A stretch of DNA of 64,000 nucleotides from Escherichia coli (GTDB taxonomy: Bacteria; Pseudomonadota; Gammaproteobacteria; Enterobacterales; Enterobacteriaceae), in assembly GCF_024502345.1 (NCBI RefSeq), contig NZ_JALDNN010000001.1. One strand, 5' to 3'. The notes beneath the pieces were generated by a model. The model was not told where the DNA came from and did no database searches. It saw only the letters and a list, made by a program, of their open reading frames with translations. A program made the position numbers and the translations under genes. Shown here piece by piece: positions 7,118 through 34,719 of the stretch (positions are counted from its first letter, which is position 1; every line of letters starts with the position of its first letter).

Positions 7118-7204
7118 GCCCGGATGGTGGAATCGGTAGACACAAGGGATTTAAAATCCCTCGGCGTTCGCGCTGTGTGGGTTCAAGTCCCACTCCGGGT
7201 ACCA
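7118..7204 (+). tRNA. leuZ: tRNA-Leu (anticodon UAA), long variable arm; 3' half is the integration site of the element
   Basis: 87 nt ending CCA; anticodon loop gatttTAAaatcc; T-stem carries a compensatory U-A pair relative to the displaced copy at 34590-34645. Confidence 0.9.
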
Positions 7205-7276
7205 TGGGAAACATCAGAATAATCAAAGCAATAAGCAGTGTCGTTAAACCACCTCCGGGTGGTTTTTTTGTGCCTG
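7149..7276 (+). repeat. attL: direct repeat covering the 3' 56 nt of tRNA-Leu plus terminator
   Basis: About 128 bp, roughly 95% identical to 34590-34719. Confidence 0.85.
7246..7269 (+). terminator. Rho-independent terminator after leuZ
   Basis: Hairpin accacctccgggtggt followed by T7. Confidence 0.7.
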
Positions 7277-7445
7277 AAATTCATGTCCTGTGCATATCCT
7301 GTGCTCACGGGGTGCGATGAGCTGCAATCTCCAGCCTGGCAATGACGAATCGAACGTGTCGCCTCCAGCATAGAGAACCAGGCCGCTTTGCCTGTTTTCC
7401 GGTACGCTTCCGGGAAGGGGGGCCTGCTGAGCAAGCTGTAATGCT

Positions 7446-8186: not shown

Positions 8187-8266
8187 TCTTCAATCCTGCC
8201 CCGTAATAAAAACACCTTCAGATATATATTATCTCCATGATATCAATCAGATACATGAGGATAAAT

Positions 8267-9484
8267 ATGCAAAAATCCTTCCGATTCACCAATTCATCCA
8301 TCAAAGCCCTTCCGGCAAACACAGATACCCGATCTACAGAGCTTGAGGTATCAGATACCGAGGTCATAGGCCTCAAATGTCTCTCAGGTCGAACGGGTAA
8401 CAAACGTTTCCTCCTGCGCTACACATTCCACGGTACCAAAAAAAGTATCAGTATTGGCAGATTCCCTGAAATCGATGTGGGGACAGCCCGTCAGATAGCT
8501 CGCCGTCATAAGGAGGCGATTGCACTTGGAAATGACCCCAAGGCAGAGCGCGATAATTATCGTGCGATGCCAACGCTTAGTGAGTTTTTTCACCTGACCT
8601 ATGTTCCGTTCATCAAGCGCCATAAAAAGTCCTGGGATAAGGATGTTCAGCGTTTCACGCAATACATTGAACCTCGTCTGGGGAAGATACGTTACTGCGA
8701 TCTCAGGGCCAGAGAGATACAACAGGTGCTGTTTGACATGCTGGAGGGGCGTATTCACGGGCAGCAATATGCGCCGTCTACCTGTAACAGAGCCCTTGCT
8801 ATTCTGAAAACGATGGGGCGTTATGCGTTGCGACAGGATGTGCTGGAAAAGAATGAAGCCGATAAGATCCCTTTACTGAAAGAGAATAATCAGCGGACGC
8901 GCTTTTTTGATGCTGATGAGATCAGGCGCATTCTTGACGCTGCTACCCAATATCCCAACAAAGCTGCCGGGGGATTGATAGCCATGTTGTTGTTAACCGG
9001 TACACGCAAATCAGAAATGCTTAATGTCAGGCATGAACATATCGACCGGGCCAATCGTACTCTGTTCATTCCTTATACAAAAAATGGTCGCAGTCGGACG
9101 GTATATCTAAGCGATGCAGCATTATCGATTATTGATGCTATCCCACGAGTTGGCAGTAATCCGTATCTGTTCGCCATTAAGGATAATGGAAAACCGATAT
9201 CGGAACCCCGATGGGCATATGAAAAAATACTGGCACAGTGCGGTATAGACAAGAATGAAGTCTGTTTTCACACCACACGTCATTCTGTTGCCTCTTTACT
9301 GGTTTCGAGTGGTCAATTCAGCCTGTATGACGTTAAAGCACAACTGGCGCATGCCAGTATTCAAAGTACGGAGCGCTACGCGAAATTGACACCAGAGCGT
9401 ATGCGTCAGACCGGGCAGGGCGTAACTGACCTTCTTTTGAACACCGTTACTGCCGGTAACAATGATGATTTTAGCACCCCTTGA
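8267..9484 (+). CDS. Tyrosine recombinase / integrase (P4-like); alternative upstream ATGs at 8237 and 8255
   Basis: Catalytic signature TGTRKSE (R), HTTRHSVAS (HxxR), ERYAKL (Y); RBS gagga before ATG 8267; adjacent to tRNA att site. Confidence 0.85.
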   Translation: MQKSFRFTNSSIKALPANTDTRSTELEVSDTEVIGLKCLSGRTGNKRFLLRYTFHGTKKSISIGRFPEIDVGTARQIARRHKEAIALGNDPKAERDNYRAMPTLSEFFHLTYVPFIKRHKKSWDKDVQRFTQYIEPRLGKIRYCDLRAREIQQVLFDMLEGRIHGQQYAPSTCNRALAILKTMGRYALRQDVLEKNEADKIPLLKENNQRTRFFDADEIRRILDAATQYPNKAAGGLIAMLLLTGTRKSEMLNVRHEHIDRANRTLFIPYTKNGRSRTVYLSDAALSIIDAIPRVGSNPYLFAIKDNGKPISEPRWAYEKILAQCGIDKNEVCFHTTRHSVASLLVSSGQFSLYDVKAQLAHASIQSTERYAKLTPERMRQTGQGVTDLLLNTVTAGNNDDFSTP

Positions 9485-9493
9485 ACGTGGAGT

Positions 9494-9751
9494 ATGAGTA
9501 TGCCGTTAAAATGTCCTAAGTGTGGTAGCCGAAATACAGTGACAGAAACTGCCGGAAAGATAGCAGAAGTGACTCGCGATGACCGGTTCCTGACATCGAC
9601 ATCCGGTTATATTAGCCCGGAGCAATTACCAGAATTGCTTAAAGAAATCATCAGGGCGATACAACGTCTCTTTAGATTCCTTGAACAGCGTGAAAGGAAT
9701 AATGCGCCAGTGCTGATCTGCAAGGATTGTGGATATTATGAAAGAATATAG
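9494..9751 (+). CDS. Small zinc-ribbon protein (CxxC...CxxC), function unknown
   Basis: 85 aa with CPKCGS ... CKDCGY; translationally coupled to the integrase gene. Confidence 0.5.
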   Translation: MSMPLKCPKCGSRNTVTETAGKIAEVTRDDRFLTSTSGYISPEQLPELLKEIIRAIQRLFRFLEQRERNNAPVLICKDCGYYERI

Positions 9752-9796
9752 ATGACCACTGAAGGCAATTCCAGATTCTTTAGCCTGTCTATGTAA

Positions 9797-9826
9797 CCCC
9801 GATACTTAAAACGTATCGGGTTTTTT
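9797..9826 (+). terminator. Rho-independent terminator
   Basis: Hairpin cccgatac...gtatcggg followed by T6. Confidence 0.6.
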
Positions 9827-9844
9827 GTTTATGAGGATTATTCA

Positions 9845-10216
9845 ATGAAATTTGTCTCGAACTGGCAAGACCTGCCGTCGCTCCTTCTTCCGGAGTCAGT
9901 AATGAGTCTGTTGAAAACAGAGCTGGTACTCCCATTTGAAGATGAATACTCTGCAATGAGTTTCTGGGATGAAGTCGGGGTGACATTAATATATGTCGAG
10001 CCCGATGATGTACCTGAAGATATTAAAGCGCAGGTATTAAATGTGATTCATCAGTTAATTGCAAATCCAGAATTTGTAGTCCGTCTGACAGATGACTATT
10101 ACCTGATGCTTTCTGTTACGGAAGATAACGGGAACGGTATTTATCTGTTATTTCACCCCGATTGCCCTCTGAAGGGTATTGATTTATTAATTTCTATGGC
10201 CGAATCACGCTATTAA
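9845..10216 (+). CDS. Hypothetical protein (element cargo)
   Basis: 123-aa ORF with RBS-like aggatta upstream; no recognisable motif. Confidence 0.45.
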   Translation: MKFVSNWQDLPSLLLPESVMSLLKTELVLPFEDEYSAMSFWDEVGVTLIYVEPDDVPEDIKAQVLNVIHQLIANPEFVVRLTDDYYLMLSVTEDNGNGIYLLFHPDCPLKGIDLLISMAESRY

Positions 10217-10241
10217 ACACAAGCAAAACCTGGAACGCAAA

Positions 10242-10775
10242 ATGAGTAAATCAAAATTAGTTAAAAATAATGTTGAGTCAGTTTCGAAGGAGATTAAAAA
10301 TGAGGCAGAGGTTATTCATGAAAATCTCAGTGCAGATGAACAAACATTATCTGATATAAAAGACTATCAGTTGCTCATTGAAACAGGCCAGGCAGAAAAA
10401 ATCAGTCCTAAGGCAAGTGGTATTCTGACATGGCAACTGGCGATATCAGAGGTGGACAATGAACTTTATCTTCGTCTGGTGGCAAATGGCTGTGGAGGGT
10501 TGTTCTCTAAGGACTGGATCTCACTTTCTAAGATTGCAACTGTTCTGGAAACACAACCTGCTACCGGCTTCTCATCCGGAGTATTCAGGCCGCTATTCAA
10601 AGGGGCAAGCGCCAACAATGCAGGTTTTCTGGCTGCTGTTTTACGCTCCCCGGATATATGTCTGCTGGAGGCACATCCAGAGAAGTTATTTACTCATGTA
10701 TTATACCCGGACTGGAGGGAGCGGTTGAATAAACTTAATACGATCAGTAGCCAGGGAAAGATTACAGAGGATTAA
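10242..10775 (+). CDS. Hypothetical protein (element cargo)
   Basis: 177-aa ORF, AT-rich codon usage. Confidence 0.45.
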   Translation: MSKSKLVKNNVESVSKEIKNEAEVIHENLSADEQTLSDIKDYQLLIETGQAEKISPKASGILTWQLAISEVDNELYLRLVANGCGGLFSKDWISLSKIATVLETQPATGFSSGVFRPLFKGASANNAGFLAAVLRSPDICLLEAHPEKLFTHVLYPDWRERLNKLNTISSQGKITED

Positions 10776-10847: not shown

Positions 10848-11282
10848 ATGCAAACCCAATATGCCTTAAAACAGGCAGGATTAACTCTGCCTGTTACTAA
10901 AGAATTTCAGCAGCATATTACTACTCTTCTGGCAAATCAGGTTTTACAAAAAATAACTGAGGCAGTGGTTATTAATTTCCGCGATCCGGACTACAGTGCA
11001 GAATCCGGGGGCTTTCATCCCGTTGAAATACGGTTTATCCGTAAGAATAATGAATGGTATTTTGATTATGTCACAGATTTTAGTTATATGGGGCGTGTCT
11101 ACCCTGAGCTGGAAAAAGAAATTGATTTTTGCTGGTCGGGGAATTATGTCTTCCATTATCTGATTGGGGATATTTCACTGGCAGCAGAGAGGAATGAACT
11201 CTGGTCTCTGTGGGAGCGTAATTTTATGGAGTATCTCTCTATGGGGATTTACCGGGTAACGGTAACTGTGGAAAGTTGTTGA
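10848..11282 (+). CDS. Hypothetical protein (element cargo)
   Basis: 144-aa ORF. Confidence 0.45.
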   Translation: MQTQYALKQAGLTLPVTKEFQQHITTLLANQVLQKITEAVVINFRDPDYSAESGGFHPVEIRFIRKNNEWYFDYVTDFSYMGRVYPELEKEIDFCWSGNYVFHYLIGDISLAAERNELWSLWERNFMEYLSMGIYRVTVTVESC

Positions 11283-11583
11283 CCCGTTATGAACAGGAAG
11301 AAAGCGGGCGGCTTTGTAATCTACAGCATGTGGTGTGCATCACAGCATGGAGATGATGTCTCTTTTTCCTGGCTGTTCGCATAAACAAGTGCAGACACGG
11401 GGGATCTCAGATCCCTCGTGATTTTTGCCCCCTATGGTGCATTCTTCTGTAGCAGGGTGATAACGGTTAATCCATTACCCCAACGACAGTATTACACCGG
11501 TAATAAATGTTCATGAATACAGTTAGTTATGTGGGTTTTGAGGTGGGCTATGTCATCGTTGACGATAACTGAAGGTTTTACAG

Positions 11584-11811
11584 ATGTATAAAACTCGCGG
11601 TGAAAGGATCGCAGAAAGGCTGTGCTGGATATTACTTCAACTGTATACCGGTAATACGGTATCGGTTAATGATATATGTCAGCGTTTCGCGGTCAGTCGC
11701 CGAACCGGACAGCGTGATTTGTTGAGAGTTGAAACTGTAACGGAAACTATTTCACCTGGAAGGGTAAGGCTGGCAAATTTGATAAGGGAACGAGTTAGAC
11801 GAAATTTTTAA
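11584..11811 (+). CDS. Small HTH protein resembling the N-terminus of YafY/WYL-type regulators
   Basis: 75 aa; ...NTVSVNDICQRFAVSRRTGQRDL... HTH, parallel to the N-terminus of the 12773-13675 product. Confidence 0.4.
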   Translation: MYKTRGERIAERLCWILLQLYTGNTVSVNDICQRFAVSRRTGQRDLLRVETVTETISPGRVRLANLIRERVRRNF

Positions 11812-11892
11812 TCGAATCCATATCAATTCTATAAAATATGAAACTTAACGGGAGTAAATATACACTCCCGTTATAATGCAACCTTTTTTTAA

Positions 11893-12711
11893 CTACTCAA
11901 ATGATATTAATTTAGGTGCGACAGTGTTTTTATGACATGTTAAATTCGCAAGATCAATAATATCATGAAACAATTTTATGTCGTCGTCAGTGAGCTCTAC
12001 GTCTGGATCAGCTAAATCGGCACAGGTAACATTTAACCAGTGTGTTAATGAATCAATCCTGTTTGAAGTAATATATTCAGTGTGACCAATATCCCACTTC
12101 CAGTTGATCACCCGAGCAGGTCTGAATCTCACCTCCCGAACCCCAATTGGCGTTACTGACTCTACGAGAGGGTATATCGTGTTAAGTACTTTATCATGTT
12201 CACTGTAGATATTTAAATGCCCCATTTTTGAACCGTAAGCCATTTTCATTATGTTCTCTGTATAACTTGTTATTGGGGTGGCTCCGGCCATAGAGATTGT
12301 TAAGAGAATATTATCATTTTTAATATAGGGTAATGTATTGTTTATTAATCGAGTCCCTAAAGAATGACCCATTATGATCACATTACGCTTTTCTTTAACG
12401 TATATCTCGTTTATTACGTGTGCTAATTTTTCTCTGTTATTAACTGCTGCTTTCGTTGCATTATACCAGGCCTGACGCGCTTTAAATGGAATGGAGATTG
12501 ATGACAATAAAGGAGATGTTCTCAGGGGGAAGAGAGTATATAACCCCCACTTGTTCGCTATGTCAGAACTTAATATGGATAGTAGATTTGCCGATTCCCA
12601 TTTATAGTATCTGACATCAAGGCCACACCCTGCTTTAATTCGGTTAAACCATGATATATCATTTTCGGTCAGAAACCCTGATACAACAAGAAGAACCGGG
12701 CATTTTTTCAT
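11893..12711 (-). CDS. Alpha/beta-hydrolase-fold protein (GxSxG nucleophile elbow)
   Basis: 272 aa; IIMGHSLGTR serine-hydrolase motif. Confidence 0.5.
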   Translation of the reverse strand: MKKCPVLLVVSGFLTENDISWFNRIKAGCGLDVRYYKWESANLLSILSSDIANKWGLYTLFPLRTSPLLSSISIPFKARQAWYNATKAAVNNREKLAHVINEIYVKEKRNVIIMGHSLGTRLINNTLPYIKNDNILLTISMAGATPITSYTENIMKMAYGSKMGHLNIYSEHDKVLNTIYPLVESVTPIGVREVRFRPARVINWKWDIGHTEYITSNRIDSLTHWLNVTCADLADPDVELTDDDIKLFHDIIDLANLTCHKNTVAPKLISFE

Positions 12712-12772
12712 GGTAACTCCATTTTTTAGCTTACAAAAATAGCACTCAATGAAAATTATATTATCCGTGTCA

Positions 12773-13675
12773 TTACGGGGCGTTACTTGGCTGGGTGTAA
12801 CGTTTCAGTGCGGATTGTATATCTTCAGCAAGTTGTTGACGGATTGAGGCCGGTTGTATTACTTCGACATCCGGTATCCAGTATTTCATTAAAGGCATTA
12901 TCTGATCTGTGTGTGTTACACGTGATATCACCAGTAAATCGCCAGACCGGGAAGTATGAATTATTTCCTGTCCTGGCAATAGATGACGGTGGGTAAACCA
13001 CGGAGCAACATGTGCGGAAACTGAAATAAGAACTTCGATAAGGTCTTCGCTATACCAGATACCATCTGTCTTTTCTATTTTTTCATTAATTTCGGGGATT
13101 ATCCTGAAAGAGATATTACTCATGCAAACGTCTTTGACAGATGAGATAACAAAGCTTTTTAATGTACTGTCATGGGCGGCAGCGAGATACCACAATCCGT
13201 TGTCATTAACCAGCCTGTATGGCTCAACAGCCCGAAACTCTTTATCTTTGTAATTAAAATTTACTTTCTTCTGTGACAGGATGGCATCGGATAATACATT
13301 CAGAATTGACATGAATGATCCGCAGTTTTCGTATGGACGTTGTTTTATCAGAAACGGGTTGTTTTTCGTGTTACCTAACAAAATACTCAGTAGTCTGTCA
13401 TCCCAGCGAGGGAACAGCCCTTCAATACCCAGGATGCGCGTGAAATGACGTAAATCAGCATTGCTGCGTTGACCGAGAACACCGTCAGACAGGCGATAGC
13501 GACCATTTTGTCGAATCAGATTAAGATAGGACAGGCGCTGAGTAAGATCACGACGGATAGTTTTTTCGCAAACGTTAAATTCCTCAGATAACTCCCGGAC
13601 GGCTAGTGACTCACCATTGTTCAGGCGAGTTAATATCAATCCGAGTCGATATCCAAGTTTATCGTGCTTACCCAT
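12773..13675 (-). CDS. HTH + WYL-domain-type transcriptional regulator (YafY-like)
   Basis: 300 aa; N-terminal DeoR-like HTH ([21 protein letters not shown]), central region consistent with a WYL domain. Confidence 0.5.
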
Positions 13676-13724
13676 TCGTTTATCCGGTTAATGCCAGCGA
13701 AGAGGATATTTTCAGCAAAGTAAC

Positions 13725-13835
13725 GGACAGGATGAGTCCACTTTTACTGTGACGGAGAAAAAAATTAACTCATTAATTATCAATATATTAAAACATTGCT
13801 GGAATCATCGAATAACATGTGGACTCATCCTGTCC
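13725..13835. promoter_or_regulatory. Perfect 17-bp inverted repeat pair (candidate operator) upstream of the WYL/HTH regulator gene
   Basis: ggacaggatgagtccac (13725-13741) and gtggactcatcctgtcc (13819-13835), 77-bp AT-rich spacer. Confidence 0.5.
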
Positions 13836-14054
13836 ATGTGTATTTTTACGTTCAGGGTGATAATTATTATCCTGACCTGTACATGACATGTTTTTGCTGC
13901 ATATTTGACCATGCACTTTTGCCATCAAGTCGGAGAGGCAGGGGGGAACGTAAGATCCGAAGGTTAGAGAGGTTATCAGCAATTACAATGATGATTAATA
14001 TTTTCATAATATCGGAGAACATCATATTAGTTGAAATAACATAAAGGTGGTTCT

Positions 14055-14381
14055 ATGTATTTACATATCAGAAAGTATCAACTCGTAAATGCGAGATGGC
14101 GTGATGTCATTGATCTGACAGATTATGAAGAAACAATCAGGCAGGTTGTCGGTACATTATTTGGAAATGATTTTATTGAGGTCAGCGTTGAAACAAATTG
14201 TTTTACTCTGACAGTAAACAGTACAAGCAGTAAAATACCACACGGCATACTGGTGAATATGGGGAAAAGGCTGGCGGCTAATCTCCAGAGTATCACCTGT
14301 CATGCCATGCGGATCTATCATGTAAATGGCCATCCTGACGCGCGGCAGTTATTTCACTGTTTTGATGCCGATTGCCTGTGA
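14055..14381 (+). CDS. Hypothetical protein (element cargo)
   Basis: 108-aa ORF with RBS aaaggtgg upstream. Confidence 0.4.
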   Translation: MYLHIRKYQLVNARWRDVIDLTDYEETIRQVVGTLFGNDFIEVSVETNCFTLTVNSTSSKIPHGILVNMGKRLAANLQSITCHAMRIYHVNGHPDARQLFHCFDADCL

Positions 14382-14385
14382 TTAA

Positions 14386-14415
14386 GCCCCCAACTTCTGT
14401 TAAAGGAGTTGGGGG
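14386..14415. terminator. Bidirectional hairpin between convergent genes
   Basis: cccccaact...agttggggg perfect stem. Confidence 0.5.
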
Positions 14416-14429
14416 AGATTTAACGGTTA

Positions 14430-17030
14430 TCAGACTGGAAGACAGAATGTCGGATATTTACGGGCTATGATATCCATCAGTGACTTCATTCGCGGTGTTA
14501 CAGAACTAAATTTCATTTGGGGTATTTTTGCTCTTACCGCATTTTTTACATCAGTCACCGTTACTGAATAGCCTTCTGACGTCAGCCATTCAGCAACCTC
14601 TTTACAGGAATAACTTTTTTTATCTTTCAGCATCAGCCCCCATTGGCACTGAGTCAGCGCCCGGAGAAATAGTCTGACTAAAATATCATCACTACGTTTG
14701 CTTCCGACTTTTAGTTTCATATCAGAAAACACCGTCCGGCAATAGAGAAAATCACACCAGTCATCCCAGTCAGCCAGGGTCTTCAGTGTATGCGTTTGCC
14801 GCCAGTCGTCGAAAAGGGAGCGCTGCTGCAGAGCCTCTTCCATATTATCCCATGGGCGGGAAAACATCAGTAAATGCCCTTCATTCATGGCGGGCTGTAC
14901 GGGCTGGCGTTTGAAATCGAATTCCAGATTAAGACGGATATCCTGTTCCCGGGATACCAGATCGCTTTCCGACAGCCACATCTCACGCGTTGATATCAAC
15001 GTACTTCGGGATAAAGTCTGACCGGGTAAACGATTAAGGTAAAGATCTACCATATAGTCGTTATAGTCACTGCGTGGAATATCGGCAGGAGGTTTGACGC
15101 CAGCCCTGGCATGAACAACAGGTTTTCCCTGAATAGCTCTATAGGTTAACTGCCCCCGGGTTTTCATGGCGATAAGCTGGCTGACTTCATGCTTACATGT
15201 CAACATTGATGAACCCGGATCAACAATATCGCACAGCGACTGGAAGCGGGAAGACAGTGGACCGCTCATGTTTATCTTGTTAAGTGGGCAATTTGTCAAA
15301 AAGCCATCGGTTGTGACGCTGACAACCGATGAATCAGAAGGCAAAGCATTCATGAGTTCCCCGGCAACGGCGCGGATAAATCCCGTTACATGCGCAGCAA
15401 AGAATGGCTGAGTAACCGATGATGGTGGGAGGGATCTGTTTAATCCACGGGCAGTATCAAAGGCGGTTTTGGCGCGAAGGCCCTGAGCAAGTTTGCCATA
15501 AAGCGAGTTGCCAATTTCTTTCCAGAATTTCTCCTCCAGAGAACCTTTAATATGGCGATTACGGTTCTCACGGACCTGTTGAACAAAGGGAAGAAACACC
15601 GATGTTGATTCGCTGTTATGTGGGGAGGTGTCACAGATCCAGGGGACGATGATCCCATTATGGATCGTCATCTCTGCCCCGAGCGACAGAGCAAGTTCGA
15701 TTTCAGGTGCCGTTGCCCATGATTCGCCACTTAATGGAAAGAATAACCCATATTGATCGGTCCGAACCGGCAGGCTGGGATAGGGAACTGATTCCGGGAA
15801 CCGAAATGTGACAAGCGCAAATCCCATTACATGCCCACAGTAATCGTCCGGATTTTTACTGAGGCGGATGTTCCCGTAATCGGGTGTGAGGATATCTAAT
15901 AGCCCGGTGGTATACGCTCCAGCCAGATCGTAGTCATACCAGTGATCAGACGGTGTAACCCCCATCATAAAACACTCATTGCGTCCGCCGTGGTAACAGT
16001 TGATCGGGAACGTTTCAAACAACTCTCTTGAAGGAACACTGGCGGGGTTTTTAATCGTCCGGAATGCCTGTTTCTCCGTGAGCCAGAGTTCACGGGTTTT
16101 AATGTGTGTCCCAAGGCAGACTTCAGGAGACATATTGTTTTCTTTAAGTGTTTTGGTGAACCGTGAAACTGCCATCGCCCCGATGGTGGCGGGGACACGA
16201 TCAATCATCAGCTCCCGGGCGCAAAAATTGCGAACCTGTAAAGCATAACGAACCGCAATCTCGGCATCCCGCAGAGCATAGGCTTCAAACCCTGCTCTGT
16301 CGCCCAGAAGATATTCACGCATATTGGTTATGGAATAAGGTGCAGGAATGGTGAGTTTGGGAAGACCCAGTAATTCACCACATTCAGCCAGACCCATACC
16401 CCCGGGAGTGATAAGCAGTGTATCGATGAAAGCTACGTTACTGCAACGCGGAGGGGAAGTTCGTTTGTCAAACATTATCTGTTCAGTCTTTACGCGACGT
16501 TCCTGCTGTTCATCAAAATCGATACCGTAACGATTTTTGAAGCTGCTGACAGTACCGCGTATTCCTTTCAGAAGAATTTTGTAGTCTGACCAGAAATTGG
16601 CAAAGGAGGCGATATCCGCACGAATGAAATGCGCATATATATTAATAATACCGGGCCATTTTGTAATCACACCCGTTTCAAGAAGCGGTGTAATCGTTTG
16701 ACAGAGAAATTCCTTAAAAGACAGCCGGGATTTTTTCTGTGAGTCAGGTGGATAGATAATGTTCGATATACCTGTATTATCGGGTAAGATAACATAACTC
16801 TGATATGACAGAATATCATTCTGTCGTGTTTCAGGGTTGAAAACATATTCGGTATCAAAACCGATATGGAGTGTCAGGTCACTTGAAATAACAGATACTT
16901 TTTTTGATGCAGGTGGTATCACAGGATAATCATCAAGCGTTTTAGGTCTTTTACGATTGAGCGCTGGCTCTGAAGTCACGGACTGATACCCCGAGGCGGC
17001 AGCGAGGATGTCCTGCAAATTATTGCTCAT
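14430..17030 (-). CDS. Family-B DNA polymerase with 3'-5' exonuclease domain (piPolB-like); alternative start at 17093
   Basis: Exo I FDTE, Exo III YALRD, motif A DYDLAGAYTT, motif B KEIGNSLYGK, motif C VTTDGF, downstream KTRG, all in canonical order; RBS ggag before ATG 17030. Confidence 0.85.
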   Translation of the reverse strand: MSNNLQDILAAASGYQSVTSEPALNRKRPKTLDDYPVIPPASKKVSVISSDLTLHIGFDTEYVFNPETRQNDILSYQSYVILPDNTGISNIIYPPDSQKKSRLSFKEFLCQTITPLLETGVITKWPGIINIYAHFIRADIASFANFWSDYKILLKGIRGTVSSFKNRYGIDFDEQQERRVKTEQIMFDKRTSPPRCSNVAFIDTLLITPGGMGLAECGELLGLPKLTIPAPYSITNMREYLLGDRAGFEAYALRDAEIAVRYALQVRNFCARELMIDRVPATIGAMAVSRFTKTLKENNMSPEVCLGTHIKTRELWLTEKQAFRTIKNPASVPSRELFETFPINCYHGGRNECFMMGVTPSDHWYDYDLAGAYTTGLLDILTPDYGNIRLSKNPDDYCGHVMGFALVTFRFPESVPYPSLPVRTDQYGLFFPLSGESWATAPEIELALSLGAEMTIHNGIIVPWICDTSPHNSESTSVFLPFVQQVRENRNRHIKGSLEEKFWKEIGNSLYGKLAQGLRAKTAFDTARGLNRSLPPSSVTQPFFAAHVTGFIRAVAGELMNALPSDSSVVSVTTDGFLTNCPLNKINMSGPLSSRFQSLCDIVDPGSSMLTCKHEVSQLIAMKTRGQLTYRAIQGKPVVHARAGVKPPADIPRSDYNDYMVDLYLNRLPGQTLSRSTLISTREMWLSESDLVSREQDIRLNLEFDFKRQPVQPAMNEGHLLMFSRPWDNMEEALQQRSLFDDWRQTHTLKTLADWDDWCDFLYCRTVFSDMKLKVGSKRSDDILVRLFLRALTQCQWGLMLKDKKSYSCKEVAEWLTSEGYSVTVTDVKNAVRAKIPQMKFSSVTPRMKSLMDIIARKYPTFCLPV

Positions 17031-17076
17031 AGTTAACTCCGAAAAAATGCCGGGAGCTGTGTCCCGGCATAAAGAA

Positions 17077-17715
17077 TCAGGATTTAATAACATTTACTAC
17101 AGATTTGAAAATATCGGTTTTGTGTGATTCATCATCTACATGGATAAAGGAAACGAGTTTCCTGCCTGCTTTAATCAGGATACCGCGTTGCGTCTTTTCC
17201 ACAGACGGGGTAACGTGTGCAGATAACAGACAATGTTCATGTAAATGAAGAAACTTTTTTGAGGCGTAGCCGCCATGTAATCGGGCTTGAATGTCAAGAT
17301 ACATATCATCAAGAGAACCGGGTTCTCCTGATTCACTCAATACCGGATAACCCTTCTTATCAAAGAGGTTAAGGATAGATTTACTATCATGTTCGAACAG
17401 GGTAACACCGTAAATGTATTTCATTCGAAAGGTGAGGGAATCGGTGGTGTAGACCTCCTCCTGACGATTGAAATTTTTGAGACGCCTGGCTAATTCATTA
17501 AAAACAGCACGAGCAGTAGCCGTGTCCTGCAGGGTGTAGGTATAAAGTACGAAGCCATCTGTGCCGATGAGCTTTACTAAGTTGTCCATAATCGTGATAG
17601 CGAGAACTAATGCAAAGGACAGATATTTTTCATCGTTGTCTACAGCTGTGTTTGCTGCTTCAGGAAGAATGTTCAGTGCATTATTAGCATTATTTGCTGT
17701 GTTCTTAGTAACCAT
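17077..17715 (-). CDS. Hypothetical protein between the excisionase and PolB genes
   Basis: 212-aa ORF overlapping the xis stop by 11 nt; no recognisable motif. Confidence 0.5.
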   Translation of the reverse strand: MVTKNTANNANNALNILPEAANTAVDNDEKYLSFALVLAITIMDNLVKLIGTDGFVLYTYTLQDTATARAVFNELARRLKNFNRQEEVYTTDSLTFRMKYIYGVTLFEHDSKSILNLFDKKGYPVLSESGEPGSLDDMYLDIQARLHGGYASKKFLHLHEHCLLSAHVTPSVEKTQRGILIKAGRKLVSFIHVDDESHKTDIFKSVVNVIKS

Positions 17716-17905
17716 TTATATCACCTTTAAGTTTGTTTTGACGATGTGCATTTTCCCACTCAACAATATCATCAAGAGAGAATCGTATAGCCCGCCCAAT
17801 TCTGATGAAGGGCGGGAGTTTTCCTGGGTTGCGCGATATATCTGACGCAACCGTGGATGCGGAAAGATTAAATCTTTCTGCAAACTGCTTAATGGTTAAA
17901 TACAT
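17705..17905 (-). CDS. AlpA/Xis-family excisionase-like DNA-binding protein
   Basis: 66 aa; LTIKQFAERFNLSASTV ... winged-helix pattern typical of AlpA/Xis. Confidence 0.65.
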   Translation of the reverse strand: MYLTIKQFAERFNLSASTVASDISRNPGKLPPFIRIGRAIRFSLDDIVEWENAHRQNKLKGDINGY

Positions 17906-18055
17906 AAACCTCCGGTTTTAGAGAAGAAGAAACCACGCGGATTTAATATCAATCCACATTCTTTGATGACTTAATGCAGGGCCCTGCAGAAGCATGCAAT
18001 GACAATACCGTCCTTAAACGAGTGTTGCATCAATCACGAATCACAGATCATAGGT

Positions 18056-19186
18056 TCATTTTTTCGTGTCATAACTTTCTATGACCTGAGAAACCACTGC
18101 GTGCGATGTCGCTGCATTGTGAAAAGCGTAGCGACGGGTCGCCGTGAGTGAATGGTGATTTAGCAGATGGGAAGCGATTGCAATATCCCCGGTCGCCTGT
18201 AGTACCCGGGTGGCAAAGGTACGGCGCAGGTCATGCATCCGCAGGTTATCAATGTTGGCATCCCGACAAATACGGGCAAAGGTTGCACGCGGATATGCCA
18301 GAGGGCGGGCATTGTCGGTTAGTTGTGGAAAAATGTAAGTTTTGCTGAGCATCAGGTCTTGCTGGCACTGGACAACTGCAATGGCTGGAGGTGCAAGTGG
18401 GCAGGTGAAAGGGTGTCCGGACTTTGTATCAGGCAGTATGAGTTGATGCATATCCGGGTGCCAGTACTCCCATTTCAGGGTACATACCTCACCAATACGC
18501 ATCCCCGTATAAAGAGCAAGCAATATAGAATCAGCTGCCGGTGTTTGCAGCGCTGTTGCCGCGTCAATAAAGCGCGGGATTTCTGTCGCTGATAGTGTGC
18601 GATAGCGAATGTTATTTTCTTTCAGATAGCGGACATGTGACATCGGGGAATGTGTGATCCATCCAGCACGTACTGCCAGAGAGCATATTTTGGACAATAT
18701 TGCGAGGATACGGTTTACTGTTGACGGACGTAATTTTTCCCGTAAGCCAGCAGCATATTGTTCTAGTTCCCCTGCCGTGATGTCGCGAAGTTGCCGCTTG
18801 CCCCAGAACGGGCGAACGTAGAGGTTGAGTTTTGACAACTCTGACTGAGGACTCTTTTTATACAACTGCAAATCCGGTAGCCACAGGTCATTGATGGCCT
18901 GTTCCACAGTGAATCGACGGGACTGAACCGCAAGACGATTTTTATCAGCAAGCAGTTTCATCACATGCTGACGGGCATCCTCAACGCAGAGCTGAGGGAA
19001 CTGACCCAGGGTTTCATATATACGCTGATTGTTTATAGTGGCACGAAAGGCCAGCGTGATCCGATTGGGATACACCAGAGCACGCAGGTTTTGGCAGTGA
19101 ATATCACGGTATTCCTGACAACCCGTGAGGGGATGTGGAAGTTGGTGAAGTGATTTGTTGCTGAAACGCAGATCCAGAATAGGCAT
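18056..19186 (-). CDS. Second tyrosine recombinase (XerC/D-like integrase)
   Basis: 376 aa; RIGEV (R), HDLRRTFAT (HxxR), TRRYAFH (Y). Confidence 0.8.
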   Translation of the reverse strand: MPILDLRFSNKSLHQLPHPLTGCQEYRDIHCQNLRALVYPNRITLAFRATINNQRIYETLGQFPQLCVEDARQHVMKLLADKNRLAVQSRRFTVEQAINDLWLPDLQLYKKSPQSELSKLNLYVRPFWGKRQLRDITAGELEQYAAGLREKLRPSTVNRILAILSKICSLAVRAGWITHSPMSHVRYLKENNIRYRTLSATEIPRFIDAATALQTPAADSILLALYTGMRIGEVCTLKWEYWHPDMHQLILPDTKSGHPFTCPLAPPAIAVVQCQQDLMLSKTYIFPQLTDNARPLAYPRATFARICRDANIDNLRMHDLRRTFATRVLQATGDIAIASHLLNHHSLTATRRYAFHNAATSHAVVSQVIESYDTKK

Positions 19187-19329
19187 CGTATTTCTCCTGT
19201 AAATGACACTGGAAAAATACGATGTGAGGTTATAGTCTGCCAGTTACAGCTTTCACAGTTCATCAGGTGAAAAAACGCAGATTCGGATATAATGGCAACA
19301 CAATTCCATGTCGCCATTATATTAAGAAA

Positions 19330-20460
19330 CTACAGTTTCATGATCTTGTTCGCTATTTTTTCGAAGTAAACCTCATTCTTAAGAAGAGTGATATTGTTTG
19401 TTTGAACACCCAGACCACTGGAGGTTGACTGGAAGTTGAGTGAACCACTTATCACTGTGGACTTTCCTGATAAAAATGAAATCAACTCCTTGGAAGATGG
19501 TGCCCACTCAGGGTTTAAGAGTAATGCAATATAGATATATGTCTTACGAAGCAATTGTTCTATATCTTTTTTATGCCCTGTAGTGTTTTGCTTACCTTTA
19601 ATGCAAATAGATTTGATTATGAACTCATCAGGGCTGGTTAAAGGCGTTTTAAACTCACTCAGTGATCCATCGTTATGAATGACTTCATAAGGCAGCATAG
19701 ATAAAATGATCAATGCAATCATTTTAGGATGATAAAGGTAGTTATCACGAATGATTTTTCCTGCCTTCATTGTATTGAGCGTTGTTTGAATAAATACAAA
19801 AAGATATTCAGAGCAAAAGTAACAAAACACAAGCCAGGATAGGTCAATGGATGGAATGTTAATATCCTTAGGTAGTTTGTTTAGCCAGTATTCAGACTTC
19901 AAAAAGGTCCTGATTTCAACAGTATATTCATGCATTTTTGCGCTGAAATCAAGCATTGCTACTTGACCTGATTGTTCCGTAACTGTGTGGTCTATAAATG
20001 TTAGTGTATTGCACATTTTATCCAGCGTGTTTTGAAAACAAGAAAGGAGTTCGGCATTATTATTACCATTAACCGCAGATGAAAGTTCAGTTTTAATAAA
20101 TGCATCCAGTAGCATACAGATTTCTTTCGGAATGACATTTTTACGGGATTGCTGTGAATAGAAATGTACTGCCAGTAAATTAAAGGCAGTGCACTCCTTT
20201 TTTAACCATTGTTCGAGCACTGGGACGTGCTGAAAAAAATTGATATGCTTAGCAGTAGATGCTGATGGAGATAGTACATGAAGAATATCTACAGCAGGCT
20301 TCATTTGCAATATTTGATCGGATTCGGTAGTCGTCATTAGTTCCAGTAATTGCTGTTCAGAAAATAGTTTAGACAGGTGATCAATGTCTTTTTGGTATTG
20401 ATTAAGTTTTGTTAAATTCCCCGGTATACGGGTTACATTGTTTTTCATTTTCTCGAACAT
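19330..20460 (-). CDS. Hypothetical protein, AT-rich, no recognisable domain
   Basis: 376-aa ORF in a low-GC block; Lys/Asn/Ile-rich. Confidence 0.5.
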   Translation of the reverse strand: MFEKMKNNVTRIPGNLTKLNQYQKDIDHLSKLFSEQQLLELMTTTESDQILQMKPAVDILHVLSPSASTAKHINFFQHVPVLEQWLKKECTAFNLLAVHFYSQQSRKNVIPKEICMLLDAFIKTELSSAVNGNNNAELLSCFQNTLDKMCNTLTFIDHTVTEQSGQVAMLDFSAKMHEYTVEIRTFLKSEYWLNKLPKDINIPSIDLSWLVFCYFCSEYLFVFIQTTLNTMKAGKIIRDNYLYHPKMIALIILSMLPYEVIHNDGSLSEFKTPLTSPDEFIIKSICIKGKQNTTGHKKDIEQLLRKTYIYIALLLNPEWAPSSKELISFLSGKSTVISGSLNFQSTSSGLGVQTNNITLLKNEVYFEKIANKIMKL

Positions 20461-20966
20461 AATTTTATCCTCGTTTGAATTATTACACTGATTTAAAAAG
20501 TAGCATGTCGTGTTAGCGAGGTAATCCTAAAACGTGAATGGCAGCAGGGGCAAGCTTGAATCTGCGTAAGGATATGGCTTGAATTTAATGGTGTAATCAG
20601 TGAGTTAGAGGCTTATAGCCATTTAAATACAATAAGTTATGATAATATATGGCGGGTGTAAATCGGTTAGTTTTTATGGTTAAAATATGAGCATTGTGAG
20701 ATTTGAGATATGATGGTTTTTAAATTACATACAAGTTACCCCTGATGATCAGTATTAATACCAGAATGATACATGCGAGCAGCACCCAATCCTGTACTAT
20801 TTATGATGGCTATACAAGGCTGAAACTTTGAGTCGTATGTTGCCAGGAGGATTAATGTCCACAAGGCCCAGATAGAATGATTTCTCAGATATTAAAGTTG
20901 AAACTTATTAACTATGTGAGAGGCTGATATTTATTCAGTCTCTCATTTGTTTTTATCGTTTTAAAG

Positions 20967-22202
20967 TTAAAAGGAAATAAATAATGCCTTCCGCCGATGA
21001 ATCAGTGTACTGATTTCTCGAAAATCAGCCTCAATACTACCAACATCACCAAAGACTTCACCACTAATCTCTCTTCGATTTTTCATGAAATTGGTGCTTA
21101 ATAAGCTTTCTTTTTTTAGTGTCACTAATTTTGGTTTTATATCGTTATAGAAATGCTTACGGCTTACCCTGATGCTATGAATCGAGTAGTAAACTGTTTT
21201 ATACATCAAAAATATAAGTAACTGGCCGAGAAGATATTCTTTTTCAATGTATTTATATTGAGAGGATTTTTCGCGTTTCGCCAGGTAGAAAACATGAGGT
21301 GCGATGATGGTGGGGATGAAATCCAGTGCTGGAGAGGTTTTGGTTTTTTCTGTTTCTCTTCCGGATTGAAGATGTTGAAGTACAGAGTATACAATGCTTA
21401 AAATTATGGCGTTACTTATATTATTAATTGCAGTTGGGTAAATATGCAGATTGCTTATCAATTCTGAAAGGCAAAGTAAAACACCAGTGATGTTGGGTTT
21501 TCTGCCGGAGATTGTGGTGCTGTTGAAAATGTGACGATTCTTACGACTTATATTGACAAGTTTATGAGTGCAGAACTCTATATGTTCGACGATTTTATCT
21601 TGACTATTTTTAATGTATTTTGAAATGTTAGTGATCCGGCCATTCAACGTTAGTTCATCAAGCAATATATCATTTTTAATATTGCGAATTTCATCGCAAT
21701 GTTCACATTGAGAAACTATCTCATGTAATACATAACTCGACGTATTGCGGGGTGACGCTGATATGTAATCTAAAATAGAAGGCTCGATTTTGATTTTTTG
21801 TTTGTATTTTTTAATGCACTGTTTGATTGTTTTTTGTAGAGTATTTGAGATGTGTTTTTTATATTCTTTTAGAAAATCTTGCTCTAAAAAGAGTGAGGAG
21901 AAGATCAACTGCTGGCGAGATAATTTAATCTCAGGCTTGATCAATTTAATCCGAAAAACTCTTCCCTCCAACTCATAGCTGAACATGGAAGATAAGTCAT
22001 AGTGGGGTGATAAATGTTCGAGTAACGACATTCGTGTATTCATTAGCCGCTTGAATTTATGGTCAGCATACATAAGTGTTTTTTTTATTTGCTCATCATA
22101 AAGTGGGCCGATAGCGCAGTTGGCAATACTCATTCTATCCGGAGACCTCCAGTCAGCAGGGGAATCACATTGACGGTCATCATTACTATCAAAGGGCATC
22201 AA
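20967..22202 (-). CDS. Hypothetical protein, AT-rich, no recognisable domain
   Basis: 411-aa ORF in a low-GC block; no Walker or nuclease motifs seen. Confidence 0.5.
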   Translation of the reverse strand: MMPFDSNDDRQCDSPADWRSPDRMSIANCAIGPLYDEQIKKTLMYADHKFKRLMNTRMSLLEHLSPHYDLSSMFSYELEGRVFRIKLIKPEIKLSRQQLIFSSLFLEQDFLKEYKKHISNTLQKTIKQCIKKYKQKIKIEPSILDYISASPRNTSSYVLHEIVSQCEHCDEIRNIKNDILLDELTLNGRITNISKYIKNSQDKIVEHIEFCTHKLVNISRKNRHIFNSTTISGRKPNITGVLLCLSELISNLHIYPTAINNISNAIILSIVYSVLQHLQSGRETEKTKTSPALDFIPTIIAPHVFYLAKREKSSQYKYIEKEYLLGQLLIFLMYKTVYYSIHSIRVSRKHFYNDIKPKLVTLKKESLLSTNFMKNRREISGEVFGDVGSIEADFREISTLIHRRKALFISF

Positions 22203-22505
22203 CGTTGCCGATTATGGATCATGTCAGCTCCACACACCAGAACGGGTGATATATGGATCATCATTACCCCAACGGCAGTTTTACACCATGGCTAATATGG
22301 ATGCTATCTTACTAAGATAATTGGTTTTTAGCGAGTGACGAGCCCGGTTGTGTCAGTCTGTCTCATGTCGATATTACGGGGATGATGCAAACCTGAATGC
22401 TGCGATATTGGCGTGTCAGGGGAGGCATCTTACGGTATCATTTACCGCAATTTTTAAGATGCAAAGCCCTGCATCGCTAGCTTTTTCTTCAGACCAGGAT
22501 GATTC

Positions 22506-24029
22506 ATGAACGACAAAATCAGTCAGGACACGATCAACAAAGCCCTGTGGGCCGCGTGTGATACGTTCCGTGGCACCATCAGTGCTGATACCTATAAAGA
22601 CTTTATCCTTACCATGCTATTCCTTAAGTACATTTCGGATGTCTGGCAGGATCACTACGACGAATATAAAGTGCAATATGGTGATGAGCCGGAACTGATT
22701 GAAGCGATGATGGCGAACGAGCGCTTCGTGTTGCCGAAAAGCGCCAGTTTCTATGCGTTGTACGAGCGACGTCATGAGCCGGGCAACGGTGAGCGTATCG
22801 ATCAGGCGCTGCATGCGATTGAAGAAGCCAACGGCACCAAACTGAAAGATGCCGGGAAAAGTGTCTTCCAGGATATTTCGTTTAACACTGACCGTCTGGG
22901 CGAAGAAAAACAGAAGAACACCATCCTGCGTCAGTTGCTGGAAGACTTTGCCGGTGAAGATCTTAACCTGAAGCCAAGCCGTGTCGGTACGCTGGACGTT
23001 ATCGGTAATGCTTACGAATATCTGATCAAAAACTTTGCTGCCAGCGGTGGGCAGAAAGCCGGGGAATTCTATACCCCACCGGAAGTTTCGGATCTCATCG
23101 CTGAACTGCTTGATCCTCAACCCGGTGATACAATCTGCGACCCGGCCTGTGGTTCCGGTTCGTTGCTAATGAAGTGCGGGCGTAAAATTGTCTCAGGACA
23201 TGATAGCCGCAACTATGCGTTGTTCGGTCAGGAAGCGATTGGCTCCACGTGGTCGCTGGCGAAAATGAACATGTTCCTGCACGGCGAAGATAACCACAAA
23301 ATCGAGTGGGGCGATACCATTCGTAACCCGAAGTTGTTGGATAAAAACGGCGACCTGATGCTGTTTGATATCGTGACCGCAAACCCACCGTTCAGCCTGG
23401 ATAAGTGGGGCCATGACGAGGCCGAGAATGATAAGTTTGGGCGTTTCCGTCGCGGTGTACCGCCGAAGACTAAAGGGGATTACGCCTTTATCTCGCATAT
23501 GATCGAAACCCTGAAACCGGGAACGGGTCGTATGGGCGTAGTGGTGCCGCACGGTGTGCTGTTCCGTGGCTCCAGCGAAGGCAAAATTCGTCAGAAGCTG
23601 ATTGATGAAAACCTACTCGATGCGGTGATTGGCCTGCCTGAAAAACTGTTCTACGGTACGGGTATTCCTGCTGCAATTCTGATTTTTAAAAAGCAGAAAG
23701 TGGATGACAAGGTGCTGTTTATCGACGCCAGCCGTGAATTTAAGGCAGGTAAAAACCAGAACCAGCTCAGCGCAGAAAACATCGAGAAAATCGTCAAGAC
23801 CTACCGTGATGGCGATAGCGTCGAGAAATATGCCTACCTTGCCAGCCTGAAGGAGATTCAGGACAACGATTACAACCTCAATATTCCGCGCTATGTCGAT
23901 ACCTTTGAAGAAGAAGAAGATATCGATTTACTTGCCGTTCGTGCTGAGCGGGAGGAATTGAAAGCGGAACTGGCGAAATTGGAAACGCAGATGGCGGGTT
24001 ATCTGGAGGAGCTGGGTTATGGTGCCTAA
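22506..24029 (+). CDS. hsdM: Type I restriction-modification N6-adenine DNA methyltransferase subunit
   Basis: 507 aa; SAM-binding DPACGSGSLL and catalytic NPPF (VTANPPFSL). Confidence 0.9.
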   Translation: MNDKISQDTINKALWAACDTFRGTISADTYKDFILTMLFLKYISDVWQDHYDEYKVQYGDEPELIEAMMANERFVLPKSASFYALYERRHEPGNGERIDQALHAIEEANGTKLKDAGKSVFQDISFNTDRLGEEKQKNTILRQLLEDFAGEDLNLKPSRVGTLDVIGNAYEYLIKNFAASGGQKAGEFYTPPEVSDLIAELLDPQPGDTICDPACGSGSLLMKCGRKIVSGHDSRNYALFGQEAIGSTWSLAKMNMFLHGEDNHKIEWGDTIRNPKLLDKNGDLMLFDIVTANPPFSLDKWGHDEAENDKFGRFRRGVPPKTKGDYAFISHMIETLKPGTGRMGVVVPHGVLFRGSSEGKIRQKLIDENLLDAVIGLPEKLFYGTGIPAAILIFKKQKVDDKVLFIDASREFKAGKNQNQLSAENIEKIVKTYRDGDSVEKYAYLASLKEIQDNDYNLNIPRYVDTFEEEEDIDLLAVRAEREELKAELAKLETQMAGYLEELGYGA

Positions 24030-25266
24030 GGGGTGGAAACGAGTACCGATTAAGGATGTGTGCGAGTCTATAATCGATTGCGTAAATAAAACAGCTCCAG
24101 TTGTTGATTATGAAACTCCCTTTAAGATGATTCGTACCACGAATGTACGTAATGGAAGGGTTAATACTGAAGACGTCAGATATGTGACTGAAGACACTTA
24201 CCTGCAATGGGTTCGACGCGGAAAACCGCAAGTAGGTGATATCATCTTTACACGTGAAGCACCTGTAGGAGAAGCAGGTGTCCTGCAAGATGCTGAAGGT
24301 ATTTTCCTCGGGCAAAGAACGATGATGTATCGAGCTGATACCTGCCTTTCAGATAACTATTTCTTGTTCTACTCGTTATCAAGTCCCTTCTGCCAGAAAC
24401 AAATTGAAGATTTTAGCAATGGCGGTACTGTAGCTCATATGAGAGTTCCAGATTGCGGTGAGATATTGATCAATCTACCGCCTTTCCTCGAACAAAAGAA
24501 AATCGCCCAAATCCTGTCAACCTGGGATAAGGCGATTTCGGTGACGGAAAAGCTTCTCACCAACAGCCAGCAGCAGAAAAAAGCCCTGATGCAGCAATTG
24601 CTTACTGGGAAGAAACGCTTGCTGGATGAGAATGGGACAAGGTTTTCTGAAACTTGGAAATTATATGCCTTATCGAAATTATTTCAGAGAGTTACGACTA
24701 AAAACAATGGAAAAAGCAACAATGTTGTAACCATTTCTGGACAACATGGTTTGATTAAACAGGAAGACTTTTTCAAGAAAACAGTCGCATCAGATACCCT
24801 TGATGGTTATTTCTTATTAAAAAAAGGGCAGTTTGCTTACAATAAAAGTTACTCTAATGGTTATCCGATGGGTGCAATAAAAAGATTAAATCGATATCCA
24901 GAGGGAGTAGTAACAACTCTGTATATATGTTTTGAACTTACTACACCCAAAAAATCATGTGGTGACTATTGGGAGCATTATTTTGAGTCAGGGCTTTTGA
25001 ATAACAGTTTGTCTCAAATTGCTCATGAAGGTGGACGGGCTCATGGCTTGCTAAATGTAAAACCTTCGGACTTCTTTTCATTAAAAGTTGCGGTTCCTGG
25101 CTTTGAAGAGCAACAAAAAATCGCATTAGTTCTGTCCGCTGCCGACACCGAAATCTCCACACTGGAGAAAAAACTCGCCTGCCTGAAAGACGAGAAGAAA
25201 GCCTTGATGCAGCAACTGCTGACCGGGAAACGTCGGGTGAAAGTGGATGAGGCGGTTGCCGTATGA
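24019..25266 (+). CDS. hsdS: Type I restriction-modification specificity subunit
   Basis: 415 aa; two target-recognition halves each followed by the conserved repeat KKALMQQLLTGK(K/R)R; overlaps hsdM stop. Confidence 0.88.
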   Translation: MVPKGWKRVPIKDVCESIIDCVNKTAPVVDYETPFKMIRTTNVRNGRVNTEDVRYVTEDTYLQWVRRGKPQVGDIIFTREAPVGEAGVLQDAEGIFLGQRTMMYRADTCLSDNYFLFYSLSSPFCQKQIEDFSNGGTVAHMRVPDCGEILINLPPFLEQKKIAQILSTWDKAISVTEKLLTNSQQQKKALMQQLLTGKKRLLDENGTRFSETWKLYALSKLFQRVTTKNNGKSNNVVTISGQHGLIKQEDFFKKTVASDTLDGYFLLKKGQFAYNKSYSNGYPMGAIKRLNRYPEGVVTTLYICFELTTPKKSCGDYWEHYFESGLLNNSLSQIAHEGGRAHGLLNVKPSDFFSLKVAVPGFEEQQKIALVLSAADTEISTLEKKLACLKDEKKALMQQLLTGKRRVKVDEAVAV

Positions 25267-34589: not shown

Positions 34590-34719
34590 ATTTAAAATCC
34601 CTCGGCGTTCGCGCTGTGCGGGTTCAAGTCCCGCTCCGGGTACCATGGGAAAGATAAGAATAAAATCAAAGCAATAAGCAGTGTCGTGAAACCACCTTCG
34701 GGTGGTTTTTTTGTGCCTG
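34590..34719 (+). repeat. attR: displaced 3' half of tRNA-Leu plus terminator (direct repeat of 7149-7276)
   Basis: Contains tRNA 3' 56 nt ending CCA at 34645, with no 5' half upstream; terminator hairpin at 34691-34712. Confidence 0.85.

Follow-up and report, generated by a model that had tools for sequence, protein, structure and literature searches.

A conserved 24-nt sequence element at both edges of the piPolB module of enterobacterial pipolins

The window analysed here is a 64,000-nt stretch of the Escherichia coli chromosome (assembly GCF_024502345.1, contig NZ_JALDNN010000001.1) located near pgsA-glyW-cysT-leuZ, and it carries an island of ca. 27 kb (7.2-34.7 kb) inserted at the tRNA-Leu gene leuZ. 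Within this island a motif of ca. 45 bp occurs twice, and the question that it raises is whether the two copies are recombination sites that shuffle cargo or shared regulatory sites, both of which were put forward in an original prediction made from the sequence alone. The island turned out to be a pipolin, an element defined by its primer-independent family-B DNA polymerase (piPolB), and the motif, reduced to a core of 24 nt, was found at both edges of the piPolB module in all eight related pipolins that were retrieved independently of it.

Copy A (position 1) lies at 11455-11498 and copy B (position 2) at 22244-22287, both on the plus strand. They align without gaps over 44 nt, of which 33 are identical, including the opening 8 nt (GGGTGATA); their 24-nt cores are TTACCCCAACGACAGTATTACACC at 11475-11498 for copy A and TTACCCCAACGGCAGTTTTACACC at 22264-22287 for copy B. 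A recount over the 26-nt core CATTACCCCAACGRCAGTWTTACACC gave the 24 of 26 identities first reported, and copy A was located exactly, while the start of copy B had been set 1 nt late (22245). When up to 3 mismatches are allowed, the 26-nt core occurs within the window at these two places only, and it was not matched in any of 100 dinucleotide-preserving shuffles of the window. The gene map around each copy agrees with their description as intergenic: copy A lies between a DUF2787 gene that ends at 11282 and a gene for a 75-aa helix-turn-helix (HTH) protein that starts at 11584, and copy B between an open reading frame (ORF) of 411 aa on the minus strand, starting at 22202, and hsdM, starting at 22506. 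The change in base composition first described for both copies is found at copy B, where the GC content goes from 0.34 to 0.47-0.50, but is negligible at copy A (0.40 to 0.41).

The island is an enterobacterial pipolin, with a piPolB that exceeds the threshold of ca. 800 aa, an insertion at a tRNA gene with attachment (att) repeats, and the core gene set. In enterobacterial pipolins this set comprises IntSXT, DUF2787, WYL, piPolB, IntP2 with an excisionase (Xis), and orphan genes, the cargo being distal to the integration site (PMC11551731, PMC7385651). Because the gene order of the island matches that of published pipolins, the DNA between the two copies corresponds to the conserved pipolin core (piPolB, IntP2, Xis, WYL) and not to the "cargo blocks" as which it had first been described.

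Conservation of the motif was assessed in pipolins that were retrieved without using it, through homologues of a 376-aa orphan protein of the island (36-69% amino acid identity). Eight contigs were fetched, from Phytobacter, Edwardsiella, Serratia, Lelliottia, Hafnia, Enterobacter hormaechei, Buttiauxella and Salmonella, and all eight contain exactly two copies of the core, with 0 to 4 mismatches and in the same positions and orientation as in the window. At position 1 the copy always follows the DUF2787 terminator and precedes the small HTH gene; at position 2 it always stands between the start of the orphan gene (or, where there is one, of an ORF of 388-411 aa) and the first cargo gene. Both copies are co-directional with the genes downstream in each of the eight; the expectation that related elements would carry the motif at such boundaries is thus borne out at both positions. 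In Serratia the cargo next to a perfect core consists of a 54-aa ORF, a UvrD/PD-(D/E)XK protein, a methyltransferase and a ResIII protein, and in Salmonella small ORFs of unknown function stand next to a core that is one mismatch off. Since it is kept with such non-hsd cargo, the motif belongs to the pipolin backbone; that it might be part of the hsd cassette was rejected on the basis of these pipolins and of the hsd leader, which diverges along with the backbone.

When 37 unique flanks were anchored on the core, only its 24 nt proved to be conserved across both positions. All lineages keep the GGGTGATA box at position 1, only some of them have it at position 2, and the 3' half of the terminator, CCCTCGTGGTTT, is present in every left flank of position 1. 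The core itself is bipartite and consists of TTACCCCAACG, ca. 5 variable nt and TTTTACACC, with TTACCCCAACG and T(T/A)TTACAC(C) nearly invariant and positions 11-17 occurring as GGCAGT, GACAGT, GGTGAT, GGCGGT, GGCTGT, GGTAGT or AGCAGT. Its boxes run in direct orientation (TTACCCC ... TTACACC), and on direct reading the sole palindrome-like stretch, AACGGCAGTT, is the variable part. The intergenic DNA around the core is unalignable between lineages, whose backbone proteins are ca. 70% identical; the orphan protein is 36-43% and an adjacent 212-aa protein 30-32% identical in five of the eight lineages, and the orphan is 69% identical in the other three. Because the flanking DNA has diverged to this extent, the core appears to be under selection, and its sequence conservation indicates that it is very probably a functional element of the backbone.

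More distant pipolins were also inspected. In an enterobacterial one whose piPolB is 50% identical (contig ABKSXI010000003.1, here L032; 6123-6161 and 12638-12681, minus strand), the canonical core occurs at position 1. A related variant, CCCCTAATGGKTTAYTACAC, is found twice, once at position 2 and once at an additional site that separates the piPolB stop codon from a frameshifted WYL gene; this third copy has GGGGTGATAACGAT in front of it, like position 1. The single example available of a different architecture, in which piPolB is 45% identical (L033), showed no motif and no evident pair of comparable repeats. Where pipolins are rearranged, whether by insertion sequences (IS) of the IS1 and IS3 types, by a deletion in Atlantibacter or by another in E. 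coli I4, the motif and the operon downstream of it are spared in all cases. In Atlantibacter sp. RC6 (L015, 3226-5826), motif position 2 and hsdMS come almost immediately after uvrC-pgsA; the entire pipolin core is deleted, 33 nt upstream of the motif core are kept, and the cargo and the motif remain.

The distribution of the core is restricted to pipolins and DNA derived from them. The sequence TTACCCCAACGGCAGTTTTACACC is present in 467 of 5426 complete E. coli genomes, at 1 to 4 places per genome (median 2). Genomes with one copy (ATCC 8739, H9Ecoli and T28R) are IS-mediated deletion derivatives, and E. coli 1916D6, which has three, carries a second, IS-riddled pipolin-like island in tandem. 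In this strain (NZ_CP046003.1; L035, 10170-16800) the downstream island encodes an identical integrase protein and DUF2787, followed by IS elements, and has no piPolB. According to PMC11551731 there was no "reinfection" by pipolins in Enterobacterales. The second island may have arisen by IS-mediated duplication instead of a further integration. When one genome from each of 100,044 species was scanned for the exact pattern, 14 loci were obtained, in Enterobacter, Citrobacter, Buttiauxella, Atlantibacter, Intestinirhabdus and Franconibacter, mostly two per genome; outside Enterobacterales there was a single contig of a "Nanosynbacter" metagenome-assembled genome, which carries a Klebsiella plasmid junction and is probably a contamination. 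Among 2.9 million viral contigs the core was found in one (IMGVR_UViG_2537562015_000005; L034, 1613-1634), which may represent a pipolin next to a co-integrated prophage, as known from the literature.

Copy B and the hsd operon, without the pipolin core, are also found on 344 plasmids, of which 338 are from Klebsiella and 337 were typed as conjugative. The left boundary of this segment in the Klebsiella plasmids is the end of an IS1 located 22 nt upstream of the 44-mer (e.g. p1605752FIB; L022, 8200-8990), which indicates that hsd and copy B reached plasmids by an IS-mediated event; the motif was considered as the plasmid transfer junction and rejected, the boundary being outside the 44-mer. 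IS insertions at nearly the same point as this plasmid junction (22221-22230 in the window) are present in several E. coli genomes. Such clustering may reflect an insertion hot spot or selection that keeps the motif with hsd.

Which function, then, is conserved? Of the two proposals made at the outset, that of shared regulatory sites gives the best fit. We favour a shared promoter/operator because the position, orientation and sequence of the motif are conserved, a terminator lies upstream of copy A, the downstream genes are co-directional and the core contains a -35-like TTTACA. Judged from these sequence features, the chances are about even that the motif is a promoter/operator shared by the small-HTH unit, the first cargo operon and, possibly, the divergent orphan-IntP2-Xis-piPolB operon. 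An intrinsic-terminator-like hairpin with a T-run (11396-11427, plus strand) closes the row of genes from the integrase to DUF2787, 28 nt upstream of copy A, and copy A is itself ca. 85 nt upstream of the small HTH gene. At position 2 the core is ca. 218 nt upstream of the first cargo gene and, in lineages without the 411-aa ORF, 65-89 nt from the start of the divergent orphan gene on the opposite strand. In a simple position weight matrix (PWM) scan for sigma-70 promoters that was anchored on the core, TTTACA (core +16) together with a -10-like hexamer ending at core +44 to +47 was the best or near-best combination in most contexts. At position 1 the spacer is 16 nt and the -10-like hexamer GATATT; at position 2 the spacer is 19 nt and the hexamer TATCTT, TATCAT or TATCCT. 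The scan lends only moderate support to a promoter geometry. A long, asymmetric and bipartite site whose 3' box falls on a -35-like hexamer is also as expected of an operator or activator site that overlaps a promoter.

In the arrangement that we propose, a DNA-binding protein, for which the small HTH, the WYL regulator and the Xis-type HTH are candidates, would recognise the two conserved boxes of the core, CCCCAACG and TTTACAC, the 3' box supplying the -35-like TTTACA. In this way a common switch would act on the small-HTH unit and on the first cargo (defence) operon, and perhaps on the divergent piPolB/IntP2 operon too.

Several observations weigh against a promoter/operator. A stricter sigma-70 consensus scan predicted no promoter at either copy; copy A of the window has ATTACA and a poor -10, and its PWM score is low; the 19-nt spacing at position 2 is suboptimal; and a better promoter-like site lies nearer to hsdM, at 22413-22441. 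The core is not palindromic, unlike the sites of most HTH dimers. None of the candidate binders (small HTH, WYL, Xis) could be singled out, there being no informative covariation across lineages, and the small HTH is not unusually conserved when compared with other backbone proteins. Finally, the 344 plasmids that have copy B and hsd without the core argue that a pipolin-encoded factor is dispensable for keeping hsd. Among the ideas that were tried and dropped are the small HTH as a conservation outlier hinting at the cognate binder, since it is not an outlier, and a resemblance to DnaA, LexA, CRP, sigma-54, TyrR or Fur boxes, dismissed by eye as partial matches. Rfam covariance models gave no match at the motif and one chance-level match elsewhere.

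Another explanation, which we regard as unlikely, is that the copies are attL/attR-like sites for IntP2 and its excisionase, by which the piPolB module of ca. 10.8 kb would be excised as a circle replicable by piPolB while the part composed of IntSXT, DUF2787, motif and cargo stays in the chromosome. The layout is suggestive of this: the module has a tyrosine recombinase and a Xis of its own and is flanked by direct repeats of 24-26 nt, this bracket is kept in every lineage examined, and in the absence of the 411-aa ORF a distance of 65-89 nt separates the second copy from the gene with which the orphan-IntP2-Xis operon begins. Moreover, the role of IntP2 is unexplained in the literature, in which it is described as possibly acquired from another element (PMC11551731). 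Chimeric queries, however, identified no clean empty site, circle or tandem junction among the ca. 490 pipolin-bearing genomes of the 5426 from E. coli, and exact junction patterns for the two products occurred 0 and 0 times in 241 million metagenome records, a search that had no positive control. The sole full-length match to an empty site, E. coli I4 (NZ_CP195978.1; L021, 6290-6360), is an illegitimate deletion that keeps both motifs: its ends lie within the small HTH gene and shortly upstream of the start of the 411-aa ORF, and it leaves the motifs 260 bp apart and places hsd directly after DUF2787, without piPolB. Other piPolB-less derivatives are IS-mediated. The search for variants in which the intervening segment is deleted, as initially suggested, revealed no motif-by-motif deletion in the E. 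coli genomes. The core also lacks inverted core-type half-sites around a 6-8-bp overlap and has two direct boxes instead, and its centre, where strand exchange would take place, is the least conserved part, the two copies differing in 10 of 13 elements and mostly at positions 11-17.

Site-specific recombination is therefore unlikely, given the lack of deletion or circle junctions, the centre that differs between copies and the exchange of hsd at other places. The fuller scenario, in which a nested module of ca. 10 kb (small HTH, WYL, piPolB, Xis, IntP2 and orphan) would be excised by IntP2/Xis and copied by piPolB as a circle, leaving the defence cargo in the chromosome, strikes us as decidedly unlikely. 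If true, it would assign a function to IntP2 and piPolB and thereby address the main open question on pipolins.

The motif is nevertheless involved in exchanges of another kind. In two natural recombinants the crossover is at copy A or beside it. In E. coli Br_178 (L001) the identity to the lineage of the window (A1) is 97-100% from -1200 to -100 relative to the core and 93% in the last 100 nt before it, and the right side is 100% identical to the A2 lineage, with a crossover in GGGTGATAACG, 10-20 nt upstream of the core. A Citrobacter element (L011) has a 60-100-nt A1 patch that ends inside the core. The motif thus marks a module junction used by homologous recombination, and because the breakpoints of L001 and L011 differ, they point to recombination within a conserved patch and not to cleavage at a fixed point. 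These data are consistent with the motif acting as a passive homology anchor for crossovers between pipolin lineages; its use as a crossover patch is a side effect, the motif being the only identical stretch in diverged intergenic DNA. The cargo-shuffling sites first proposed are retained in this limited sense only: there is no motif-by-motif product, and the junctions of hsd are elsewhere. HsdM and HsdR are 97-99% identical across backbones with diverged leaders, and the near-identity starts ca. 25-110 nt before the hsdM ATG, or the exchange is at an IS1 end, but not at the core.

That the motif is nothing but such a patch, functionless and re-copied by recombination while it lets modules and cargo swap via RecA, is improbable in our view, even with the crossovers of L001 and L011 at or beside the core in its favour. 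A near-perfect stretch of 24 nt amid unalignable DNA, in elements whose backbone proteins are 36-80% identical, calls for purifying selection, and a bipartite sequence with a free centre typifies sites recognised by proteins, not conversion tracts. The junctions of the hsd cassette are off the core as well, and 24 nt is about the shortest length at which RecA recombination is efficient.

A site for replication, partition or transfer, such as an origin for an orphan-encoded initiator or a nick site, could be imagined from the location of the copies on both sides of the gene for piPolB as well as from the adjacent 212-aa and 376-aa proteins of no known function, and we hold it to be highly improbable. 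PiPolB primes without a specific template sequence (PMC5695915). Each site has a single unit and no iteron array, the half-boxes are not enriched elsewhere in the island, and family scans of the island proteins detected no relaxase or Rep family. The copies share no hairpin and their single strands fold no better than shuffled sequences (z -1.7 to +0.8), by which an attC- or oriT-like single-strand hairpin was also discarded, no structure being common to the copies.

Chance similarity or a generic genomic repeat can practically be dismissed, given the absence of any match in the shuffles, the low copy number (1 to 4 per genome), the positions kept across genera and the fact that all loci inspected are pipolin or pipolin-derived DNA; the motif is accordingly neither scattered over unrelated places nor absent from related elements, the two outcomes that had been named at the start as arguing against it.

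The promoter/operator that we favour is embedded in the following gene context. The tRNA-Leu (taa) is at 7118-7204, and the island is bounded by a left direct att repeat (7149-7279, plus strand), made of the 3' end of leuZ and its terminator, and by a right one (34590-34722, plus strand) that is 95% identical to it. Next to the tRNA, on the plus strand, are a tyrosine integrase with an arm-binding domain (8237-9484; the IntSXT of the literature), small ORFs (9494-10775) and the DUF2787 core gene (10848-11282), which precedes copy A. The next gene, beyond copy A, is the small DeoR-type HTH gene (11584-11811, plus strand; Pfam HTH_11/HTH_DeoR), which is 67-79% identical across lineages and annotated in RefSeq as "DeoR family transcriptional regulator". 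The minus strand then encodes an alpha/beta hydrolase (11893-12711), the HTH-WYL-WCX regulator (12773-13675), which is a pipolin core gene, and piPolB (14430-17093; 887 aa), the hallmark gene located between the motif copies. The piPolB ORF has weak PolB matches (PF03175, E=0.009; PHROG DNA polymerase, 4e-6), is named DNA-directed DNA polymerase by some sources and is 65-71% identical to the polymerase of syntenic elements; a word-based homologue search with it returned near-identical E. coli proteins only. Further along the minus strand are the 212-aa ORF (17077-17715), the excisionase-type HTH Xis (17705-17905; 66 aa), the second tyrosine recombinase (18056-19186), which is the IntP2 of the pipolin literature, the 376-aa orphan (19330-20460), whose predicted fold is uninformative, and, between the orphan and copy B, the AT-rich 411-aa ORF (20967-22202; GC ca. 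0.34), which has no family match. Homologues of the latter (57-64% identical) are found in the Phytobacter, Edwardsiella and Salmonella lineages and are absent from the other lineages, so that this is a variable gene within the "core" bracket.

On the other side of copy B, the hsd leader (22288-22505, plus strand) contains the -10-like TATCTT that ends at 22310, 19 nt past the TTTACA of the core. The conserved promoter-like site at 22413-22441 is composed of GTGTCA, 17 nt and TATCAT, and at 22458-22485, ca. 20 nt upstream of the hsdM start, there is a hairpin, GATGCAAAGCCCTGCATC, with a T-run; an attenuator is one possibility, the terminus of a short leader transcript that begins at the motif another. 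The gene hsdM (22506-24029, plus strand) is the first of the type I restriction-modification (R-M) cargo operon, and the cargo from 22506 on (plus strand) includes hsdM, hsdS, a YecA-like gene, hsdR, an M48 peptidase and further defence-type genes. Two other repeats were noted in the window. One is a 37-nt direct repeat in hsdS (24575-24611 and 25193-25229; 86% identical, 618 nt apart), which corresponds to the conserved region normally duplicated in type I specificity subunits. The other, unrelated to the motif, consists of two adjacent segments of ca. 500 bp at 53824-56157 (73-77% identical, spacing 1701 bp), probably tandem paralogous genes in a flagellar/chemotaxis region.

Pipolins are a recently recognised class of defence islands, for the regulation of which the motif offers a concrete experimental handle. 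It is also a cheap, piPolB-independent sequence marker of pipolin backbones in draft genomes, gives the "bimodular" model a precise boundary between core and cargo, and explains where at least some of the module swaps between lineages cross over. The pipolin literature (Redrejo-Rodriguez 2017, PMC5695915; Flament-Simon 2020, PMC7385651; Mateo-Caceres 2024, PMC11551731) describes terminal att repeats only and does not mention an internal 24-bp element; the word "promoter" is absent from PMC11551731 and PMC5695915 and has one unrelated mention in PMC7385651, and "intergenic" is absent from PMC11551731. The internal element thus appears to be undescribed in this literature.

In its organisation the island of the window resembles published enterobacterial pipolins, which share with it IntSXT, DUF2787, WYL, piPolB, IntP2 with excisionase and orphans, the insertion in tRNA-Leu, att repeats of ca. 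130 bp and type I R-M cargo distal to the integration site. The motif itself may be compared with three known systems. Like the att cores (ca. 20-30 bp) of the P2 family and other tyrosine integrases, it is short (24-26 nt), direct and brackets a recombinase with an excisionase; it differs from them in having no inverted core-type architecture, in a centre that is variable between partners and in the lack of recombination products of the motif in thousands of genomes. At class II promoters, asymmetric activator sites overlap the -35, as does the marbox of MarA, SoxS and Rob. The motif is similarly long, non-palindromic and bipartite, with its 3' end on a -35-like hexamer, yet it has no sequence similarity to the marbox and the element encodes no AraC-type protein, so that the likeness is an analogy only. 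The third comparison is with the Pc promoter and platform of integrons. There are no attI/attC or hairpin-forming sites at the motif, the cargo junctions are not at the motif and the promoter is here a predicted one, but in both systems a conserved backbone element stands at the edge between a stable platform and exchangeable cargo and is co-directional with the first cargo gene, irrespective of what the cargo consists of. On present evidence, the motif is a new example of something familiar, a conserved cis-element of a mobile element, and not a new mechanism.

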